Positions 4,062 to 43,100 of a stretch of 58,536 nucleotides of DNA are shown here, piece after piece. A program made the position numbers and the translations under genes. Position 1 is the first letter of the stretch; each line of letters opens with the position of its first letter. This stretch comes from Escherichia phage E21: the sequence record NC_052983.1; one strand, written 5' to 3'. The notes under the pieces were generated by a model. It searched no databases and was not told the origin of the DNA. It saw only the letters and a program-made list of their open reading frames with translations.

Positions 4062-5585
4062 CTAAACTTCCTTTTTCATCGCTTTTCTGAGATCACGTAA
4101 GGTCTTCAAGGCCCAATCTTGGTTTTCTTCCTTACGTCTCAGATTGTTATAAACGTGGCGGTCGGCTAGTTGGACTGTTCGGCCATCTTCATTTGTTCCG
4201 ACCGCAACTAAGTGGTGTACTGTTACTCGGTGCTTTTGACCTTGCCTATCGAGCCGGCCGATAAATTGGTCATAGTTCTCGAACGAATACGGAATGTCAT
4301 AGAAAAGAATTGTATGTCCGCCCCGCTGTAAATTCAAGCCGTGCCCCGCACTTTGAGGGTGTGCCATGTAAACTTTTATTCGCCCCGCGTTCCATTGTTT
4401 TATGTTATTTCCGTCTTTATCCATCTCGACGATATCCGGGAATCGGGCTAATATTCTTTCTCGTGATGACCGAAAGTGATACCCAAGGAAAACATTCTTT
4501 CCGGCTTCCTTTGCTTCTTCCAGAAACACTTCGAGCGCGTCTAGTTTCTCCTCGTGGATATCATAGATGTCGGTCTTCCTTATCGGCTCCTCGTTCTCAT
4601 CTATCCCGTCATAGTACGTGTTGTAAATAACGCCGGAGCACATTTGTAGCAGTTTCAATGCGAGTATCGCTGCCGATTGCGCTTCCACTATGACGTTTTC
4701 CGCTTCGGGTATCATCATGACTAAATTCTTTTGGAAGTCGAAATACTCCTTGGTGATCTTCTTATTGAGTTTTACCGGGATCACCTTTGGCTCATACGGT
4801 ACTCGATCGAGATAGTCTTCTGCTCGCATAACTACGCATATATCTTTTATCTTTTCTAAGATACGCATCTCCGTATCTTCTCTCGGCTTGATGCTGTGGT
4901 TATACGGGTTGTACTCGAAGTATTTATCCCTAAACTTATTGAAGCTACGGCCGAACCGTTTACCGTAATCAAGTAAATATATTTGAGAAAAGAACGAAGT
5001 AAATCCCTCGCCATTTGGGGTGGCCGTCAACTCGATTAGTCGTTTTATCCTCGGTCTGACTTTAGTTAAGTCCTTAAACCGCTTAGATTTGTGAGACTTA
5101 AAGGAACTCGACTCGTCTATGACCACCATATCGAACGGCCACTTGCCTTTGTAATAGTTTACTAGCCAGCTTACATTCTCTCGGTTTATGGATACGATAG
5201 GACTATTGCTATTTAGTACCGCTAGTCTTTCCTTGGGTGTTCCGACTGCCGGCGTTACTTTATACCCACATAGATGACCCCACTCCATGAATTCGTCCGG
5301 CCATGTTACTTTAGCCACCCTACGAGGGCCTATAATGAGAACTCTATCTACTTCAAAGTTATCAAGTAAGTCGGCGATCAGCGTTCCGGTTATTACGGTT
5401 TTGCCTATACCCATTTCGAGGAATAATCCGCAGAATGGAATGTCATGCGCCAGTTGTCGGGCTTCAACTTGATACTCGTGTAAGTCTTCCCGTTGTCTTT
5501 CAACAAGTTTTCTACCTTTCCTGATTTCTTCAAGTAGGTTAACTTTAGTCTTCCCAACCGTACGTTTCGAGAATTTCTTTCGCAT
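4062..5585 (-). CDS. SNF2-family (SF2) helicase
   Basis: 507 aa; Walker A GIGKT, DExx-type VVIDESS, motif III TATP, motif VI GRLDRQGQ. Confidence 0.8.
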   Translation of the reverse strand: MRKKFSKRTVGKTKVNLLEEIRKGRKLVERQREDLHEYQVEARQLAHDIPFCGLFLEMGIGKTVITGTLIADLLDNFEVDRVLIIGPRRVAKVTWPDEFMEWGHLCGYKVTPAVGTPKERLAVLNSNSPIVSINRENVSWLVNYYKGKWPFDMVVIDESSSFKSHKSKRFKDLTKVRPRIKRLIELTATPNGEGFTSFFSQIYLLDYGKRFGRSFNKFRDKYFEYNPYNHSIKPREDTEMRILEKIKDICVVMRAEDYLDRVPYEPKVIPVKLNKKITKEYFDFQKNLVMMIPEAENVIVEAQSAAILALKLLQMCSGVIYNTYYDGIDENEEPIRKTDIYDIHEEKLDALEVFLEEAKEAGKNVFLGYHFRSSRERILARFPDIVEMDKDGNNIKQWNAGRIKVYMAHPQSAGHGLNLQRGGHTILFYDIPYSFENYDQFIGRLDRQGQKHRVTVHHLVAVGTNEDGRTVQLADRHVYNNLRRKEENQDWALKTLRDLRKAMKKEV

Positions 5586-10711: not shown

Positions 10712-10741
10712 TTGACTTATCTATAATTCTTGCGGTATTAT
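10712..10741 (+). promoter_or_regulatory. sigma70-like promoter for the plus-strand primase operon
   Basis: TTGACT (10712..10717), 18-nt spacer, TATTAT (10736..10741), upstream of RBS AAGGAG and ATG 10791. Confidence 0.4.
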
Positions 10742-10790: not shown

Positions 10791-11075
10791 ATGAAAGAGA
10801 GTAATTTCCCATCGTGGGCGAAGAACAATAAAACGGGTCGACTTAAATTCATGATCCGGCATTTAGCCAGTTTCGCTTCGGAGGAGGGCCACCTAGTTTT
10901 CCTGTGCCGAGACGCTAAACTGTCGGTTCGTGGTGTCTCACAAGCAATCGACCGAGGAGAATTCACCTTTCAAATGGCGGATAAACTCGTTAAGGCTGCA
11001 AGCGTTGCTGGAAACCCGGACGTCACAGTTATGAACCTATTAAAACCTATGGAATCATTTAAAGAGGACAAATAA
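10791..11075 (+). CDS. hypothetical protein
   Basis: 94 aa; RBS AAGGAG 9 nt upstream; stop overlaps primase start (TAATG). Confidence 0.5.
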   Translation: MKESNFPSWAKNNKTGRLKFMIRHLASFASEEGHLVFLCRDAKLSVRGVSQAIDRGEFTFQMADKLVKAASVAGNPDVTVMNLLKPMESFKEDK

Positions 11076-13750
11076 TGTCTAACGTTTTCAAATCTCGTGG
11101 CCCTGAACTTTTCGACAATGGATACGAAGTCGTACCTATTACTCGTATCGACGCAACTGACAGCAAAGGGAAATTATTGTCTGGCGCGGGTAAAGCCCCG
11201 GCGTTAAAAGGGTGGCAGAAAATAGAGATCACTTCTGACATCGTTAATGAATGGGCGACGGGTAGTCGCTCTCGCTGTGGTGTGGGTATTCGTACCCACC
11301 GTAACCCTGCTGTCGATATCGACTGTTTAGACGCCGAAGCGTCAGAACACATGACGGCTTTCGTTGAGTCGGAAGTGGGCTTTGCTCCTATCCGTGTTGG
11401 GCGTGAACCTAAAGCGCTACTCCTCTATTATACAGAACGTCCTTTCACAAAAGTAAAATCAACCATCTTCGTTGATGAAAACGGGAATGAAAACGCTGTC
11501 GAGATATTAGGAAGCGGGCAACAATTCGTTGCTTACGGTATCCACCCGGGAACTAAGAAACCGTATAAATGGGTTACTAAAGGCGAGTCGCCTGCGGAAA
11601 ACCAAGCGGATTTTGACCTTGAAGAAATCACACTAGAAGACGCGAGAAAAATTATTGCGGAATTCGACCGGTATGCGAAAGAGCGCGGTTGGAAACCTTT
11701 AAAAAGTAAAAGCGGTACGGTCATCAAGCCATCTTTGGGCTACTACTTAGATGCTCCGGAAGAACTATCAGACTGGTCGGACGAGTCGGACTTTGACGAT
11801 GATGAAGACGATTGGGTCACTACTGATGATATCACCGATAAATGGGACGGTACTTACGAAGAACTTTACGAAATCTTCGAAAATGATATCGAACCATCTT
11901 ACGATTACCACACTTGGATTCCTGTTCTGGCTGCACTTAAAGACGCCGAACGTGAGCCGGACGAGTTTAAAGAGATCGCGAGAATGTGGTCTGCTCGGGC
12001 CGAGGAGTCTTTCGATAACGATGCCTTTGAAGATAAATGGGAAAACGGTAATTTCAATCGTGTTGGTAAATACGCTAAGACATTACGAGGAGTAATTGCC
12101 GAAGCGGAAAAGATCCAAGGCGTTCGCGAAATTGAGGACGTAGTTATACCTTTATTCGAAAAAGCTACTGACTTGGCCGAGTGGACTTTAGCTGCCGACC
12201 GCCTACGTGAAACGTGGGCTTTCGGTTTAGAAAGAGAGACGGCCATAAACATTGCTTGCGAAAAGTATAAGAAAGTCACTAACGGGTTAAAACTTACGGA
12301 CGTTCAAAAGAAACGATATCTTAGTATCGATTACTCTCTCTTTGACGCTCCCGAATGGTTGGCTCCTTGGGTTTATTGTACTACGGATAACGAGTTTATT
12401 AACTTAGACAATAGAACCAGAATGAACCCTAAATCTTTCGCGAATGCCTATAACCGAGAAACTGTGAAGAAATTCGGGGTAGCTGCGGACGTTTTCGCCA
12501 CGGTTGAAAGACCCGTTCCTGTTATCCACGATACGATGTATTACCCGTTGATGCACGGTGAGATGCCTAAGAACAAATGGAAGCGGGTTCCGGGTATTAA
12601 TGACAAGCGTGTTTTCGAATACAACGGTTTGACGTTCTTAAATACCTTTGACCATCGTTCCATGCCTGAGACCGCAACAAAAATTTCGACCGCTGGATAT
12701 AAGGCGATCGGGGAGGTAAAACGATACTTCGAAATACAGTATCCAGATCCAGACGAACGAAGACATGCGATGGACTGGATCGCGTGGGTTATCAATAATC
12801 CTGTTAGAAAGATTAACTATATGCTTCTCGTTCTTGGTGGTCAGGGTTCCGGTAAAACCATCGTTAAGAAGTTTATGGAACACATGCTCGGCTCTGATAA
12901 CGTCTCTACGATTTCGAATAAGGTTATCCATGGTAATTTTACCGGGTGGCAGTCTGGTCACATGCTCAAAGTTATTGAGGAAATATCGGTGAGTGGTCAT
13001 CGCTACGACGTTATGAACTCATTGAAAGAGCCGATATCGAATGAAACGTTACAGATCGAAGCGAAGTACCGTGACCCACGCCAGTGTGTGAATACTTCGT
13101 CGTATATGGCATTTACCAATGATGTTGGTGCTTTGCCTCTTACATCAAGTGACCGTCGCTTCTTGTTAGTTCGTAGTGCGTTCCAGCACAAGCGTGAAGT
13201 CACTGAATACCTACGGAAAGACCCTAATTACTTTAAACGGTTTGAGAAAGCCTTTACTAAACACGCACCGGAGATCCGCAAATGGTTTAGCGAGTGGGAG
13301 TATTCCGAGGGCTTCAAACACGATGGTAACGCTCCTGAAACGGTGAGTATGGGAAGCATGTCTTTAGCGTCAGAAGACGATTTCACCTCCGTAGTAATGG
13401 GGGCCGTAGATGATTGTGAGAAAGAGTTAGAATTTACATCGGGGATCACAGACGAAGTAATTTTCATTCCATCGGCAGTAGATTTAGTCCGAGATAGGTC
13501 TAAGGTTCCTAACGGGAAAATAATATATCGCATACTCGCTGAATATGGTTTCTTCCGGCCTGTGGATTCTCGTACACAAATAAGATTTAATGACGTAAGA
13601 GGACAAGTTGTTGTCGCGAATAGACATAAATGGCTCTATCCTGATGGGAGTGTCAACGTAGATAAGATTAAAGAGCATTTAGAGGAGAACGAACGCCGGG
13701 TAGAAGAACAAGAAAGCAAGAGAGAGTTAGAAGAAACTGACGTTTTCTAA
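11075..13750 (+). CDS. DNA primase-helicase (prim-pol-like N-terminus, P-loop D5/SF3-type C-terminus)
   Basis: 891 aa; Walker A LGGQGSGKT and Walker B-like region in C-terminal half; acidic linker; typical phage primase/helicase layout. Confidence 0.8.
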   Translation: MSNVFKSRGPELFDNGYEVVPITRIDATDSKGKLLSGAGKAPALKGWQKIEITSDIVNEWATGSRSRCGVGIRTHRNPAVDIDCLDAEASEHMTAFVESEVGFAPIRVGREPKALLLYYTERPFTKVKSTIFVDENGNENAVEILGSGQQFVAYGIHPGTKKPYKWVTKGESPAENQADFDLEEITLEDARKIIAEFDRYAKERGWKPLKSKSGTVIKPSLGYYLDAPEELSDWSDESDFDDDEDDWVTTDDITDKWDGTYEELYEIFENDIEPSYDYHTWIPVLAALKDAEREPDEFKEIARMWSARAEESFDNDAFEDKWENGNFNRVGKYAKTLRGVIAEAEKIQGVREIEDVVIPLFEKATDLAEWTLAADRLRETWAFGLERETAINIACEKYKKVTNGLKLTDVQKKRYLSIDYSLFDAPEWLAPWVYCTTDNEFINLDNRTRMNPKSFANAYNRETVKKFGVAADVFATVERPVPVIHDTMYYPLMHGEMPKNKWKRVPGINDKRVFEYNGLTFLNTFDHRSMPETATKISTAGYKAIGEVKRYFEIQYPDPDERRHAMDWIAWVINNPVRKINYMLLVLGGQGSGKTIVKKFMEHMLGSDNVSTISNKVIHGNFTGWQSGHMLKVIEEISVSGHRYDVMNSLKEPISNETLQIEAKYRDPRQCVNTSSYMAFTNDVGALPLTSSDRRFLLVRSAFQHKREVTEYLRKDPNYFKRFEKAFTKHAPEIRKWFSEWEYSEGFKHDGNAPETVSMGSMSLASEDDFTSVVMGAVDDCEKELEFTSGITDEVIFIPSAVDLVRDRSKVPNGKIIYRILAEYGFFRPVDSRTQIRFNDVRGQVVVANRHKWLYPDGSVNVDKIKEHLEENERRVEEQESKRELEETDVF

Positions 13751-17737: not shown

Positions 17738-17790
17738 TTTAAAATCCTCAATACTGGTTAAAGTTTCCGGTTCGTTCCGGCTATGTGTGT

Positions 17791-17819
17791 AATATAATGC
17801 TACCGCTTTCAGGTGTCAA
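17791..17819 (-). promoter_or_regulatory. sigma70-like promoter, cassette A (TTGACA-17-TATATT) with conserved leader
   Basis: Minus-strand TTGACAcctgaaagcggtagcatTATATT; ~85-bp cassette repeated near-identically at 19510..19590 and 21000..21075. Confidence 0.6.
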
Positions 17820-17898
17820 CATGTTTTTATAATTATTTTAGATAATAAAAAAGGACGGCCACCAGAAAAGATGACCGCCCCGATTGTTGATGCTTCGA

Positions 17899-18757: not shown

Positions 18758-19498
18758 TTAACCCTCCCACGTCCACGATTCTGAGGCGTCACGAACAATA
18801 ATTTCGGCCGGACGATTCGCGCGTATCGCAACGTCTTTACCATCAACGAAGTAGACCGCGAAAAAATGCCCGAACACGTCGCCATCTTTCACGTGGATTT
18901 CTCGCCCGTCGTCTTCGCAGTAGAACACTGTAAGCCCGTCAACTGATGCTTCGTTGTTCACTTCGAAACCAAGGCTTGACAGGCCGTCTAACAGTGGGCG
19001 CATTGTGTCGAAACTTTCAGGGAGTGACGCCAAGATCAAGGCGTCTAAATCGCTAACCGCGTTACGTTTAAGCGTCACACACCCGCCGATCGTGAAAGTT
19101 ATGTCCCAACCTTCGGCTTCTTCGCCACGGCTAAAAAATATGGCTTTTAATTCTTTCCCGTCGATTGTTTTCGCAAATGTTGTCGCTCCGTGAGATTTAT
19201 CAAGGTCTAAAGAGAACCCCAGCGCTTTCATTACGGCGATAGTTCGTGCGGATAAGTCCGCATCATTGGCCATATGACAGCTCGCACCATGATCGAACAC
19301 GCTCACCTCGACGCTCTCAAATAGGTAACGTGCTAGTGGAATGAATTTATCGAAATCCGCAATTAATGCTATCGCCCCCGATAATGTTTTAACATCGCCC
19401 ACCTTGGCGCGAGGGTTAACTGTCAAAATATAATTACGAACACTTTCGGGCATATCAAAAGGGCTGTTATCGGTTACAACGTTAGAAATGAAAGTCAT
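18758..19498 (-). CDS. hypothetical protein
   Basis: 246 aa; preceded by promoter cassette B and RBS GAGGA. Confidence 0.55.
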   Translation of the reverse strand: MTFISNVVTDNSPFDMPESVRNYILTVNPRAKVGDVKTLSGAIALIADFDKFIPLARYLFESVEVSVFDHGASCHMANDADLSARTIAVMKALGFSLDLDKSHGATTFAKTIDGKELKAIFFSRGEEAEGWDITFTIGGCVTLKRNAVSDLDALILASLPESFDTMRPLLDGLSSLGFEVNNEASVDGLTVFYCEDDGREIHVKDGDVFGHFFAVYFVDGKDVAIRANRPAEIIVRDASESWTWEG

Positions 19499-19552
19499 GA
19501 TTTAAATCCTCAAAACTGGTTTAAGTTTCCGGTTCGTTCCGGCGATGTGAGT

Positions 19553-19581
19553 AATATAATACTACCGCTTTCAGGTGTCAA
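19553..19581 (-). promoter_or_regulatory. sigma70-like promoter, cassette B (TTGACA-17-TATATT)
   Basis: Near-identical to cassettes A and C. Confidence 0.6.
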
Positions 19582-19609
19582 CAAGTTTTTTATAAATATT
19601 TTAGGCAAT

Positions 19610-19650
19610 AAAAAACCTCTTACCGTGGCACCGAATAAGAGGTTTTAGTT
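19610..19650 (-). terminator. rho-independent terminator (structurally bidirectional)
   Basis: CCUCUUA-13 nt loop-UAAGAGG; U6 on minus strand, UUUUAGUU on plus. Confidence 0.65.
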
Positions 19651-19729
19651 ACTAACTTGTTTTCATGTTTTCAAATCAAGGCTATATTAACGGATATTTT
19701 TCAACTTGTAAACAATAAATTTCTCAGCG

Positions 19730-19758
19730 GAAAAGAAAAAAGCCCGCATATACGGGCT
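19730..19758 (-). terminator. rho-independent terminator
   Basis: Minus RNA AGCCCG-UAUAUG-CGGGCU followed by UUUUUCUUUUCC. Confidence 0.65.
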
Positions 19759-20047
19759 TAAAATATAAGGCTTAATGACCTAAAATTACGCAAACTTTAC
19801 GAAGTGTGGCACAAGCAACCCAAATCAACCAACGGATGCGAACTTATCCACCGTTGAGCCGAACAATAACACCGTTACGTGGTGCTGTCAAGCGTCGCTA
19901 CACATAGCCCAATTGAACCGCGCCACGGTGAATATATCCCACAGGATACGCACTTTAATCGAAACAAAACTAGCCCGTTACTACTGCGAGCCTCAGATCT
20001 AAACGGCTTACCGCATGAACAATAATACCAGTTTTTCTTTTCCCTGA

Positions 20048-20413
20048 TCACCATACAGACCCCCTTACGTTCGTTAGCGTGTCCCTATAACTCCGGTATA
20101 AATTTTTTGCGCCTCGTATCCATTCGCCGGCGATCTCCCCCGAGAAAAGAACCGGCTCGTAAACCGGATAAGTGACATTAGGGTAATCCGTTCTTACGTC
20201 GTCGATCCTAACGTATGCCCTCCGGTGTCCATAAGAATATCGGACGGTTAGGACTCTAAGCAACTTGTTGTTAACATGGAACACCACGCCATAAGAGTAA
20301 TTAAATTCCGGTAATGATAAATCGTTGCTAGGCCTCCCGATAGCCACTACCGGTAGATTTAGAAACTCATTACAAACCTCATAAAATTTGAAACAATTTA
20401 CTGAGTTACCCAT
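20048..20413 (-). CDS. hypothetical protein
   Basis: Track ORF 20048..20515 trimmed to internal Met (MGNSVN), which overlaps the stop of the upstream gene. Confidence 0.45.
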   Translation of the reverse strand: MGNSVNCFKFYEVCNEFLNLPVVAIGRPSNDLSLPEFNYSYGVVFHVNNKLLRVLTVRYSYGHRRAYVRIDDVRTDYPNVTYPVYEPVLFSGEIAGEWIRGAKNLYRSYRDTLTNVRGSVW

Positions 20414-20975: not shown

Positions 20976-21029
20976 GGTAATACTCCTCAATACTGGTTAA
21001 AGTTTCCGGTTCGTTCCGGCTATGTGTGT

Positions 21030-21058
21030 AATATAATACTACCGCTTTCAGGTGTCAA
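21030..21058 (-). promoter_or_regulatory. sigma70-like promoter, cassette C (TTGACA-17-TATATT)
   Basis: Near-identical to cassettes A and B. Confidence 0.6.
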
Positions 21059-21080
21059 CATGTTTTTGTGATTATTTTAA

Positions 21081-22253: not shown

Positions 22254-22282
22254 ATATTAGCAACACCTCGGGCCGGTGTCAA
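22254..22282 (-). promoter_or_regulatory. sigma70-like promoter D (TTGACA-17-TAATAT), shares the -35/upstream element of cassettes A-C
   Basis: Minus-strand TTGACAccggcccgaggtgttgcTAATAT. Confidence 0.45.
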
Positions 22283-22287
22283 CAAGT

Positions 22288-22562
22288 TTTTATCTATAAA
22301 AATTCTGACGGAACAAAGGAAACGCGCCCACCGGTGCGCCCGTACATACATATAAGTCGGCCAGTTTGTACTTATCTACAAAAATTTCGGGCTTACTTCA
22401 AAAACCTCGCGGGCCGATGATTTTCTGTGACGATTTAAAAACTTTTCCGGCCGGCTTACTTCAAAAACCTCGCGGGCTGAAAAAATTCCCGTGAGAAATA
22501 AAAACCGGCCAATGGATTTATCTACAAAAATTAGAACCTTACTTCAAAAACCTCGCCGGTTG
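22288..22562. repeat. iteron-like direct repeat array (3x TATCTAyAAAAATT and 3x CTTACTTCAAAAACCTCGC(G/C)GG)
   Basis: Motif A at 22291, 22373, 22519; motif B at 22392, 22455, 22538; in the divergent control region between minus promoter D and plus promoter 22621. Confidence 0.7.
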
Positions 22563-23520: not shown

Positions 23521-23841
23521 ATGAAAAATTCAAACGTAGCACTCGCCATTGATTCCGTTTTGGTAAAAAAGAAAATTGATATTATCCCGGTTTTTAAATC
23601 GTTAGAGGAAGAATATCAAATGCGGATACAAGCGTCGTGGTCAGGCATCACCGCGCACACGCCAGAACGACGCATCTACACCCACGGCCACCCGACTACT
23701 AAGATGGCAACAACACCGGAACAACGTACAACGTATCGCCTCCGTCTATTGAAATTCCTACGGTGGCTCTACGCGAACAACTACACAACGGGGCCACTGT
23801 TAGAAATCAAATCGTGGCTAGAGGAGCAAGAGGAATGGTAA
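23521..23841 (+). CDS. hypothetical protein
   Basis: 106-aa ORF. Confidence 0.45.
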   Translation: MKNSNVALAIDSVLVKKKIDIIPVFKSLEEEYQMRIQASWSGITAHTPERRIYTHGHPTTKMATTPEQRTTYRLRLLKFLRWLYANNYTTGPLLEIKSWLEEQEEW

Positions 23842-40194: not shown

Positions 40195-43100
40195 TATTCA
40201 GTATCCTCTTTGACGTCTTGGTCTGGTAGTCGTTCCGCCCAATCATGATCCCACTTGTTTGACCAACCGGCAACAACCAACGGTGGCGGAGGCTCGACCG
40301 GATCAGGGTCAGGGTTGCCCGGATTAGGTTCTGGATCAGGGTTGCCCGGGTCGGGGTCGGGGTTCGGTCTATCAGGCTGACCCGGATCTGGATTGCCGGG
40401 GTTCGTACCACCGCCAGTTCCGCCACCGCCAGTTTCGCCACCGCCAGTTCCCGGGTCAGGTCTTCCCGGATTGGGGTCAACATCTCGCTTGGCCGGAATT
40501 GAGGGTACTTTACACTGAGTATTATATCCTTGCCAGCTACTAAGCTCGTTTTCATCGACAGCGGATACCGTGATCGAAACATAGACGTAGCCGGTGGATT
40601 CCGTCAAGATCCCTACTCGTCTGCCGAACGCGTGTAAGTCTTCGGCCTTGATCGTCATTCCTGCGTCGCGAGTATAATACGTCCCCATGGTGATAGTAAC
40701 TGTGCGATTGCTGTATCTAGGAGTATATCGTTTCCCGATCCACACTCGATACATTACGTCGCTTGGCCGTTGTTGTCCCACATCAAGATGGTCTAACACG
40801 GTTTCCCCTTGACGAACTCGGTTACGGTGCGCCCACGTCATCACTAAGTCTTTGCCTTGCGGGTCATAGTAGTCAAAGTTATCGGCCAGTGCGTCCCACC
40901 CTTTGAAAAAGTGCTCACCGTTGCCGAGCAAGAACCCCGGTGGATATGGTCTATCCGCGCGTAGTTTCACTTCCAGTTGTTTGTTTACCACGTCTTTAGG
41001 CTGGATTTCTGCTGCGAGAGAATGAGGCCTTACGGCAACTACGCAAGTCTGGCCGTCGTGATATTTACGTTGCCCGGAAGCTATTTGTTTGTCGACAAAC
41101 CACACAACTTGACCTTTCCCATGAAGTGCGGGGATTGTATCAACACAACCACGGCCAACCGTAATACGTTTACCATCGATGCCCCGGATCACCATCGCTT
41201 CGGCTCCGACGAAAATCACGTCGCCCGGCATCGCGTCCTCAGTAGGAACCCCGTCAGAATCCGACGTAGCATCGAGGATTATCTCATTATCCAGATATGA
41301 GATTGCCTTAGACAGAATCCCCCACGGCGTCCACGGTTGCGCCCCTTGGTTCACGTACTCTGTATCGTTCTTCTCTTTCTCGAACAAATCGTACCCGTCG
41401 GTTACACGGTCTGACGGTCTAGCTACCGTAGCGAAGAATTGTGAGGCGGACGGTTCGAACCCATGGCGTAGCAACATTAAGTAAGGGAACTCAAACAGTT
41501 GGCTATCTACGATAGGAACTAATTTGCCTTGTTGCGAAACCGGTTGTCGCACATAGCTAACATTCACGCCATCAGGTAGGCCCCCGCCACCGGAAGATAG
41601 ATCTTCGCTCTCCTGTGCTACGGATTGGTTGACAAAACTAACCATGGCTTTTGCGTCTACGGCCGTCTCTCCGTCTTTATCTTCGGGGTCGATTTTATCG
41701 GACACCTGAGCGACAGATTGGTTTAAGAAACTAACATACGCCATTTGAGGCGGTTTCTTGAAAACGGTGATCGGTATTAAGTAGTTTTGCCACGATTCGA
41801 ACCCGTCGCGCATAGACTCTAATCTCAAGTACCCAGCAACCGGATCTATGGCTGACGCTTCCACGTTCAAATCTAGGCTCGCTTGGCCGTAAGTGTAGAC
41901 AAACTGTGTGCCGGTAATCCCGTTTTCTCTGCGGATTACTTCACCCTTAGCGTTTAGGATACTAATTCGGTATGTCGTTCCCGGCTCCGGCCCGATACTA
42001 TCTTGCTCATGATAAATAGGCTTGTCTTGTTGCATCGGTCTATCTCGGTGCGCCCACGTTATCGTCAAGGCGTCAGGCACTTCGGCCTCTCCGACGTCCG
42101 CTCGTAAAACATGGCCATTAAACCAAGGGTTCGGTTCCGTGCTTTCCACTGAGGTGAGTTCTACTTTACCCGGAGCGTATGGGCGGTAGAATCGGTAATT
42201 GAAAGTCAGTTCATCTTCGGACACGTTAGACTCGTCGAGAACCCCACCCGATAGCGTCCATGGGAGTATCTTCACCGATAAGGTTTCTCCCGCTTGTCGG
42301 GTTGTCAGGTCAAGCCCGCCACCTTGAACCATATCCCACACTACGGAGCCAGCGGGGTGTTGGTGAGGTACGGTGTCGTACACGCCTCGACGTATTTCGA
42401 CTAACCCGTCTTCCTCGATAGACTGGATCATGATTATTTCTTGGTTGACGTAAAAAACGTCCCCGACTTCAATCAAGTCTTCATCTACCGGATCTTTCAT
42501 TCGGATATAGCGGTCTAAATATCCAAGGTCAACCGGTAATTCGAATAGCGCAGTGAAATCCCCCGCACCTGTTTTCTCATACTTTCCAGTGGTCGGGTTT
42601 TGGACGTGCATCTCGAACGCCATCGTTACCGGTGAGCCTTTTTCCGCCTGTGCCCGCAAATACCCGAAAGACGGCTTGATGGCCTCAAACTCTCCTAGTG
42701 GGAATAGGGACGACAATTCTGCGTATGTCGCCTCATAAACTAAACGTCTGGCCGGAACCGGGTTTAGGTTCGGTTTAGGGAAAGACGGGTCTTGAACACC
42801 AGTAAACGTGTTCAGGTCGAACGAGAACGTGTCTTGTACGCAAGATAATCGTATCTGACCATCGGATTGTTTACTCTCCTCTGTGTCCGCTACACGAACG
42901 ATTACGCTCTCAAGTCCGCGTGTCTTTGGGTCGGAAATCTTCAAAACGTCTCCCGGTTGTACTCGCCATGCTCGACGGTCACAAACTAGGGTGAACCGGC
43001 GGACGTTAGTAGACGCAACACGTAAGTCTCTTTCTGCTATGATAGTGGCCAGTTTTGCGGTTGGCACCCCCTCATACGTGAATGTGTCGCTTTTGATGGC

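Follow-up and report, generated by a model that had tools for sequence, protein, structure and literature searches.

A promoter-to-terminator unit in the early region

In the genome of Escherichia phage E21 (NC_052983.1), a minus-strand promoter-like sequence within the early region is closely trailed by an intrinsic terminator, which raises the question of whether this segment encodes a small regulatory RNA (sRNA) and, if so, on which transcript such an RNA might act. The window, i.e. the whole stretch of 58,536 nucleotides (nt) analysed here, represents the genome, complete or nearly so, of a siphophage of Proteus that belongs to Lavrentievavirus (family Casjensviridae); its identity to Proteus phage pPM01 is approx. 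99%. Our analysis indicates that positions 19712..19610 (minus strand) very probably constitute a real, undescribed and free-standing sRNA gene. The significance of this unit comes from comparison with related phages and not from the window alone.

An earlier note on this DNA had proposed a minus-strand promoter (here named P2) followed only by a 4-codon open reading frame (ORF) and a terminator (T2) formed by a hairpin and six U residues, which would give a transcript of about 70 nt. All of these elements were found at the coordinates it had given and on the same strand: the −35 hexamer TTTACA (19707..19712), a 17-nt spacer (19690..19706), the −10 hexamer TAATAT (19684..19689), the ORF, and the hairpin with its U-run. 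The placement of the unit between an upstream terminator (T1) and a promoter cassette (cassette B) was likewise borne out by the coordinates. Transcription from P2 is predicted to start at G19677, the first base of the 5′ seed GAUUUGAAAACA (19666..19677). The seed is followed by an A/U-rich linker (19647..19665) with the mini-ORF ATG AAA ACA AGT TAG (MKTS; 19666..19652, with ATG at 19666..19664 and the stop codon at 19654..19652). T2 (19610..19646) consists of an 11-bp stem, in which AAAACCTCTTA (19646..19636) pairs with TAAGAGGTTTT (19622..19612), a 13-nt loop containing GCCACG, and a U-run at 19615-19610 (T6); two inner pairs shrink the apical loop to 6 nt. A simple terminator scan missed T2 because its loop is longer than 8 nt. 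From the positions of P2 and T2, an sRNA of about 66-68 nt (19610..19677, minus strand) is predicted.

A 70-nt RNA spanning 19677-19608 folds at −16.5 kcal/mol (z = −2.98), and only one of 200 shuffled sequences folded as well. A search against Rfam 15 found no family at the gathering threshold in the whole window, nor were tRNA or tmRNA genes found there. In a permissive Rfam search of 19450-19950, the best match over the unit was the Bacteroid-trp leader (29.9 bits against a threshold of 49; E = 0.21), and the permissive matches look like generic terminator matches.

Conservation of the unit in five lineages

An examination of conservation and covariation, as suggested in the earlier note, showed that the exact architecture of the free-standing promoter-to-terminator unit is kept in five lineages belonging to three genera, and the T2 stem covaries across them. 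The lineages are (i) Lavrentievavirus, (ii) Providencia phage Kokobel1 (Kokobelvirus), reached via the protein of 246 amino acids (aa) encoded downstream (56% identity), (iii) the Logan assemblies L064/L067 (58-kb phage contig) and (iv) L065 plus L063, which overlap by 25 nt, both reached via the 189-aa protein encoded upstream, and (v) Proteus phage Saba (Cenphatecvirus), reached via the primase. Where homologous, the flanking proteins are approx. 40-60% identical between lineages.

The common layout begins 3′ of a gene for a Zn-ribbon protein and comprises an upstream promoter (P1), approx. 100 nt, T1, TTTACA, 17 nt, TAnnAT, 6 nt and a 12-mer, followed in all lineages by a linker of 13-26 nt, the hairpin with its U-run, and a strong promoter. 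The 12-mer, GATTTGAAAACA (GAGTTGAAAACA in Saba), begins at the seventh nucleotide after the −10 hexamer in every lineage; the first 12 transcribed bases, GA(U/G)UUGAAAACA, are thus nearly invariant, being identical at 12/12 positions in four lineages and at 11/12 in Saba. Mean pairwise identity is 1.00 for the −35 hexamer, 0.30 for the P2 spacer (the length of which is 17 nt throughout), 0.83 for the −10 hexamer (TACTAT in Kokobel1, TAATAT in both Logan lineages and TAAAAT in Saba, with TAnnAT invariant), 0.47 for the discriminator and 0.96 for positions +1 to +12. Such a pattern would be expected if the promoter works and the 5′ end of the RNA is functional, and is unlike that of a chance match.

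The T2 stem differs in each lineage (CCTCTTA/TAAGAGG, CCCGAA/TTCGGG, TCCCGAA/TTCGGGA, CCCCTAA/TTAGGGG and CCCCGAG/CTTGGGG), but pairing is retained: all 55 cells are paired, none is broken, and both sides are changed in 6/11 pairs. The covariation score of 0.60 (0.25 in shuffles) was reached by none of 500 shuffles, and slid registers collapse. Since the loops differ in length, MAFFT alignments of the hairpin were out of register; the pairs were therefore counted on a hand alignment and recounted on an equal-length alignment, from which one loop base of the window was removed and Kokobel1 was omitted. In all five lineages the hairpin is followed by a U-run, as in Rho-independent terminators, with fold energies of −15.8 to −19.2 kcal/mol. 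The predicted RNAs of the other lineages are 61-70 nt long, and each consists of a 5′ single strand and the terminator hairpin. The seed is predicted to be mostly unpaired, being free in the centroid structures of Kokobel1, L064 and the joined L065 and L063 (L065_63), and weakly paired in the window.

The T2 loop (19635..19623 in the window) is itself unusual. It is large (12-13 nt), carries a GCCRCG motif in all five lineages and has the same sequence (AGTTTAGCCGCG) in three lineages despite their different stems, which suggests that it has a function of its own, e.g. in kissing interactions or protein contact.

We rate as exceedingly improbable the view that P2 resembles a promoter by chance, within an A/T-rich stretch separating two terminators, or that the segment is a small protein gene. 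Taken alone, the P2 match is at chance level: it agrees with the consensus at 9/12 positions, and 19 such matches are present in the surrounding 6 kb, compared with 10.0 ± 3.9 in shuffled sequences. Small ORFs are, moreover, annotated here on the opposite strand in some GenBank records. A chance match would not, however, account for a −35 hexamer, a TAnnAT motif and a 17-nt spacing that are invariant in five lineages despite only 30% identity of the spacer. As for a protein, no ORF is conserved on either strand in the five lineages, in Saba no ORF reaches 10 aa, and the indels by which the linkers of the lineages differ (4, 6 and 7 nt) are not all multiples of three. The mini-ORF is absent outside Lavrentievavirus and its ATG is replaced by ACG in one record of that genus, so that the earlier note was right to treat it as irrelevant, and the small-protein reading was rejected. 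On the comparative data we consider both a chance match and a small protein gene excluded.

It is also conceivable, if very improbable, that the unit acts only in cis, either with T1 and T2 as a tandem insulator of the cassette promoter, or with P2 and T2 as a promoter-proximal module of termination or antitermination, or as a leader of the downstream genes. T2 lies directly before the UP-like region of cassette promoter B in every lineage, and a constitutive promoter closely trailed by a terminator is the layout of the lambda late leader. In the lambda pR′-tR′ region (6S RNA), a strong terminator is located 70-200 nt past the promoter and gives rise to an abundant short RNA, and the late genes rely on Q-mediated read-through. 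The unit resembles pR′-tR′ in this arrangement of promoter and strong terminator. It differs in that a promoter matching the consensus at 11/12 positions is placed between T2 and the next gene, that it belongs to the early region, and that the downstream genes, which have this promoter of their own, vary between lineages while the unit stays. In L064 and Saba the downstream gene is a different one, and yet the unit keeps its place beside the Zn-ribbon gene, which argues against a leader for the downstream gene. In addition, the other two copies of the cassette have no such unit upstream, direct reading of the first 20 transcribed bases reveals no −10-like pause element of the TAnnnT type, and an insulator needs neither a conserved promoter nor an invariant 12-nt 5′ end.

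The sRNA unit was found in only three genera, whose members infect Proteus or Providencia. Scans of IMG/VR, JGI metagenomes and GTDB genomes with DNA patterns made of the −35 hexamer, the −10 hexamer and the seed recovered only Kokobel1 and Saba (both in IMG/VR), with zero matches to the unit in the metagenomes and genomes. Scans of the same collections guided by the 246-aa protein gave nothing usable for the unit. The 44 IMG/VR matches to a shorter pattern were dismissed as chance matches in coding DNA, except for Kokobel1 itself. Jacunavirus SLP-22, the next closest relative by primase, has no such unit complementary to its primase start. Logan contigs reached from the downstream protein break at the repeated cassette, and two of them (L061 and L062) therefore lack the upstream sequence. 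A Logan query with the 121-aa protein matched only its own cluster.

Conservation within Lavrentievavirus

Within the genus, diversity was analysed over 10 kb in an alignment of 13 sequences, namely the window and 12 relatives. The nucleotide diversity of the unit (19610-19712) is 0.0059, which places it in the lowest 1.3% of 103-nt windows (median 0.039), and the block 19606-19855 is within the lowest 1.1% of 250-nt windows. The unit is less diverse than the flanking genes and than the adjoining strong promoter of the cassette. Across all 26 related GenBank records, identity over the 273 non-coding bases at 19603-19875 is 96.7-99.6%, and it falls to as little as 93.5% over an 801-nt stretch that includes flanking coding sequence. 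Only three sites in the unit vary: A19621G in the 3′ arm of the T2 stem, where a U·G pair is retained, T19665C, which turns the ATG of the mini-ORF into ACG in the AS-M1_NWU record, and one base of the promoter spacer (19704). The gap of approx. 550 nt that appears "empty" in all 26 GenBank records of the genus holds the best-conserved sequence of the early region.

Complementarity of the predicted sRNA to the start of the primase gene

A candidate target, which the earlier note did not contain, was found 8.6 kb away on the other strand. The 11-nt sequence GUUUUCAAAUC (11084..11094, plus strand) is a perfect complement of sRNA nt 1-11 and is located in codons 4-7 (+10..+20) of a gene encoding an 891-aa primase-helicase of the Prim-Pol/PriCT_2/DUF5906 type (11075..13750, plus strand, with its ATG at 11075). 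The seed gene aside, this site (GTTTTCAAATC) is the only perfect complement of at least 11 nt in the window or in Kokobel1, where it occupies positions 42820-42830 (primase ATG at 42811). The L067 contig carries the same site, and all 26 Lavrentievavirus records share at least 99.3% identity over the 5′ region of the primase gene, a value that refers to the region and not to the 11-mer base by base. A reverse search, started from the primase initiation region, returned the 5′ end of the sRNA as the sole intergenic complement of at least 11 nt. The primase gene overlaps an upstream 94-aa ORF (10791..11075) at TAATG and is translationally coupled to it. This operon has its own sigma70-like promoter (10712-10741), so that both RNAs could be present early.

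The specificity of the match was assessed with 20,000 composition-matched shuffles of the 12-mer. A complement of at least 11 nt occurred anywhere in the genome for 6.2% of the shuffled 12-mers, and within −30..+25 of a start codon preceded by a Shine-Dalgarno (SD) sequence for 0.26%. In minimum free energy (MFE) dimers of the sRNA with the primase region −50..+60, the target duplex was used in every lineage; the energy of its core is −10.6 kcal/mol, and the net free-energy change (ddG) ranges from −9.7 to −15.7 kcal/mol. The 30S subunit covers approximately −20..+19, and pairing within the first five codons, up to about 15 nt past the start codon, can block its binding and hence initiation (PMC5861419). 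As the target site is inside this footprint, pairing would be expected to lower primase translation.

In Saba both partners have changed: the seed reads GAGUUG... and the primase gene starts with ATG TCT CAT GTT TTC AAG. Nucleotides 4-15 of the Saba sRNA (UUGAAAACAUGA) can nevertheless form 12 contiguous pairs, without a mismatch, with +6..+17 (UCAUGUUUUCAA). The retention of a pairing of 11-12 bp in a shifted register is suggestive, but does not amount to clean covariation.

Other potential pairing sites were also considered. A second seed-complementary site, GTTTTTAAATC (11 bp with one G·U pair; 23590..23600, plus strand), lies inside an early-right gene and is included in the lowest-diversity 250-nt window of the 10-kb alignment (from 23403). 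The Kokobel1 orthologue keeps 10 bp with a different wobble, but the site is lost in Saba (LLKS for VFKS) and was therefore not counted as a target. A genome-wide RNAduplex scan with the first 31 nt of the sRNA was not discriminating, because long interrupted duplexes dominated, and was replaced by contiguous-seed scans. Pairing of the seed with the repeated 5′ untranslated region (UTR) cassette, considered by eye, was unsupported by the unbiased scans.

The main alternative, which we find unlikely, accepts the unit as a real early sRNA and regards the primase match as fortuitous, the targets being host mRNAs, other phage mRNAs, or Hfq or another RNA-binding protein that the sRNA would titrate. 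The evidence from sRNA anatomy is independent of the target, the constraint on the 12-mer exceeds what pairing over 11 bp with a conserved coding site would require, and, as noted, 6.2% of shuffled seeds find an 11-mer complement somewhere in the genome. A host-specific target would also fit the confinement of the unit to three genera infecting Proteus or Providencia, and the phage sRNAs PreS (LPR1) of lambda and VpdS of VP882 act largely on host genes (review PMC12197685). On the other hand, the only intergenic complement of the primase start is precisely the sRNA 5′ end, and the match falls in an initiation region, as it does for very few shuffled seeds, and persists in shifted form in Saba.

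The recurrence of the same near-palindromic site at P2 (+1..+11) and at the primase start might alternatively reflect a DNA operator recognized by a phage or host protein, with the transcript as a by-product or without function; we regard this as improbable. By direct reading, GATTTGAAAAC equals its own reverse complement at 8/11 positions, it is placed exactly where a repressor would block P2, and the 94-aa gene coupled to the primase is annotated as a "transcriptional regulator" in some records. The 94-aa protein has, however, no Pfam match and belongs to a PHROG of unknown function; codons 4-7 of a gene in mid-operon would be an odd position for an operator; and the 12-mer, with two mismatches or fewer, occurs 12 times in the genome against an expectation of 8.1, which is no enrichment. 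The stretch common to both loci in Saba moves to TTGAAAACATGA, past the palindrome, a shift that RNA pairing would predict but a fixed protein site would not. Nor would an operator explain the covarying terminator at a constant distance.

Proposed mode of action

In the model that we favour, host sigma70 RNA polymerase would start at G19677 from P2 (TTTACA-17-TAATAT) soon after infection and stop at T2. The resulting RNA would consist of the single-stranded invariant 5′ end, the variable A/U-rich linker and the terminator hairpin with its U-tail, and its 5′ end would pair in trans with primase codons 4-7. Pairing would reduce primase translation, and possibly also the stability of the mRNA, and would in this way set the level or timing of phage DNA replication. 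Four parts of this model are inferences: production of the RNA, its use of Hfq, the direction of regulation and the role of the primase as physiological target.

Several points weigh against this model. P2 matches the consensus no better than chance, and it is flanked by much stronger promoters. Independent lineages are few (five), and four of them have the same seed. Because the seed is the same in all lineages but one, there is no clean seed-target covariation, and in Saba the position that changed on both sides forms a G·G mismatch. Conservation of the target site is not independent evidence, as the site is coding (V-F-K-S) and lies within a generally conserved gene start. The duplex is short, A/U-rich and located at the 3′ edge of the five-codon window, and the seed is near-palindromic (GnTTTnAAAnC), a feature also conceivable for a protein-binding site. 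The search for targets was made post hoc and covered phage sequences, and better targets may exist in the hosts, Proteus and Providencia. No transcriptome or expression data for these phages were found in the searchable literature.

That the primase is the true target, its translation being lowered by pairing with the 5′ seed, is in our assessment a plausible proposal that falls a little short of even support. For the overall interpretation, an early trans-acting sRNA of approx. 68 nt that represses primase translation, the comparative evidence and the points above are in our view evenly balanced.

Comparison with known regulatory RNAs

Enterobacterial Hfq-dependent sRNAs of the RybB, OmrA/B and MicC type have their seed at the 5′ end and pair within the first codons of their targets. 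The predicted RNA resembles them in its length of approx. 70 nt, in its own (predicted) sigma70-type promoter, and in having a conserved single-stranded 5′ seed followed by A/U-rich sequence and a Rho-independent terminator that ends in a U-tail. It is likewise predicted to pair in the early coding region, within the 30S footprint (the five-codon window of PMC5861419). In contrast to these sRNAs, it is encoded by a lytic phage and its predicted target is a phage replication gene and not a host envelope protein; there is also no sequence or Rfam relationship.

Among phage-borne RNAs, lambda PreS (LPR1, approx. 88 nt) targets and activates host dnaN (PMC12197685), and Vibrio phage VP882 encodes VpdS, of approx. 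50 nt (bioRxiv 10.1101/2024.10.31.621285). The unit described here is, like these, phage-borne and organized from promoter to terminator, and PreS and VpdS act by base pairing and influence DNA replication. Those RNAs belong to temperate phages and act mainly on host mRNAs, whereas the present candidate belongs to a lytic phage and is predicted to repress the phage's own primase. No sequence similarity to PreS or VpdS was found.

Short RNAs that repress a phage gene by pairing include Sar of P22 (approx. 69 nt), directed against ant. OOP of lambda (77 nt) is directed against cII (PMC12197685). OOP and Sar are short early phage RNAs of similar length with their own promoter and intrinsic terminator, as is predicted for the RNA from P2; but they are encoded opposite their targets, to which they are fully complementary, and the candidate target described here is 8.6 kb off and matched over 11-12 nt. 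There is no conserved gene on the plus strand under 19610-19712, as there would be for a cis-antisense RNA.

In the antisense control of plasmid replication, represented by the CopA-CopT/repA system of R1 and RNA I of ColE1, a small constitutive RNA limits the synthesis of a replication protein, and CopA of R1 blocks translation of a reading frame that is translationally coupled to repA. The predicted target here is similarly coupled (TAATG) to an upstream ORF, of 94 aa. The plasmid RNAs are, however, cis-encoded, fully complementary and initiate pairing by kissing loops, while the phage RNA would be trans-encoded with a short linear 5′ seed. A role in dosage control in a lytic phage, suggested by this analogy, is speculation.

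Genomic context of the unit

The sRNA unit is located inside an early operon that runs leftward on the minus strand and in which a cassette of promoter and 5′ UTR, 96 nt long, is present in three copies (17745-17840, 19507-19602 and 20984-21079; the core is also present at 22275-22293). The copies are 85-97% identical and contain TTGACA-17-TATATT, a 5′-UTR hairpin (CCGGAACGAACCGG) and an SD sequence. Cassette B spans 19602..19507 (minus strand); its strong promoter (19553..19581; TTGACA/17/TATATT, 11/12 match), with the −35 hexamer at 19581, is directly downstream of T2. Metagenomic and Logan assemblies of related phages end exactly at the cassette repeat. The gap of approx. 550 nt separates the 121-aa gene (end at 20048) from the 246-aa gene (ATG at 19498), and in GenBank records of the genus it is either unannotated or has small ORFs called on the opposite strand.

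Near-identical genomes (93-99%) have been deposited as Pseudomonas phage E21, Staphylococcus phage SVV09-A, Enterococcus phage AS-M1_NWU and four Salmonella phages, host labels that are doubtful for a genus of Proteus phages. Several substitutions are private to the AS-M1_NWU record, in which the Zn-ribbon ORF also lacks 1 nt. This 59-aa ORF (20054..19875, minus strand) has a CxC...CxxC zinc-ribbon pattern and a good SD sequence, and it overlaps the preceding gene at ATGgTGA. Many Lavrentievavirus records leave it unannotated, and homologues are annotated in Kokobel1 (gp58) and Saba (gp17); by tblastn, homologues were found only in the same three genera as the sRNA unit.

Directly upstream of the sRNA unit there is a second conserved promoter-to-terminator unit (19891..19736, minus strand), composed of P1, approx. 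100 nt and T1. P1 lies inside the 3′ end of the Zn-ribbon ORF and consists of TTGACA (19891-19886), 17 nt and the extended −10 element TGtTATTGT (hexamer 19868-19863). T1 (19736..19759, minus strand; stem 19759..19740 plus a T-run) ends the preceding operon and the P1 unit, and its position is kept in all lineages. The block TTCGC(A/T)TCCGTTGGTTGATT (19842..19823) between P1 and T1 is common to Kokobel1, L064 and L065 and partial in Saba, and low diversity within Lavrentievavirus sets in near the predicted start. This unit could encode a second sRNA or a 3′-UTR-derived RNA; no conserved complement that might serve as its target was found in the phage. Over 42 nt, T1 of Kokobel1 (4739-4780 of sequence L016) matches, at 90-93% identity, a sequence from the tail-assembly region in many T1-like Escherichia and Klebsiella phages; the loci probably have a terminator hairpin in common and are not otherwise homologous.

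Further along the window (22367-22559), between the divergent early promoters at 22282 (minus strand) and 22621 (plus strand), there are three direct repeats of approx. 47 nt, ending in CTTACTTCAAAAACCTCGCGGG, which could be operators or origin iterons.

Biological significance

Targets are known for few of the base-pairing sRNAs that virulent phages encode, and a 2025 review makes no mention of primase (PMC12197685). The candidate described here is useful in that it has defined predicted ends, an invariant seed, a specific target prediction in an essential replication gene and natural variants (Saba and Kokobel1). The phage has been reported to be strictly lytic (PMC10194311). As these phages are being developed for the therapy of Proteus mirabilis infections, an RNA that tunes replication would, if real, be of practical as well as mechanistic interest. 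We tentatively propose, with somewhat more doubt than confidence, that the primase-helicase of a lytic siphophage is under the control of the phage's own trans-encoded early sRNA, a plasmid-like antisense brake or timer on replication that has been kept complementary to its target across three genera of Casjensviridae, possibly alongside the second RNA unit upstream. If this is true, it suggests that these phages control their replication at the RNA level, through the start of their own DNA primase gene.

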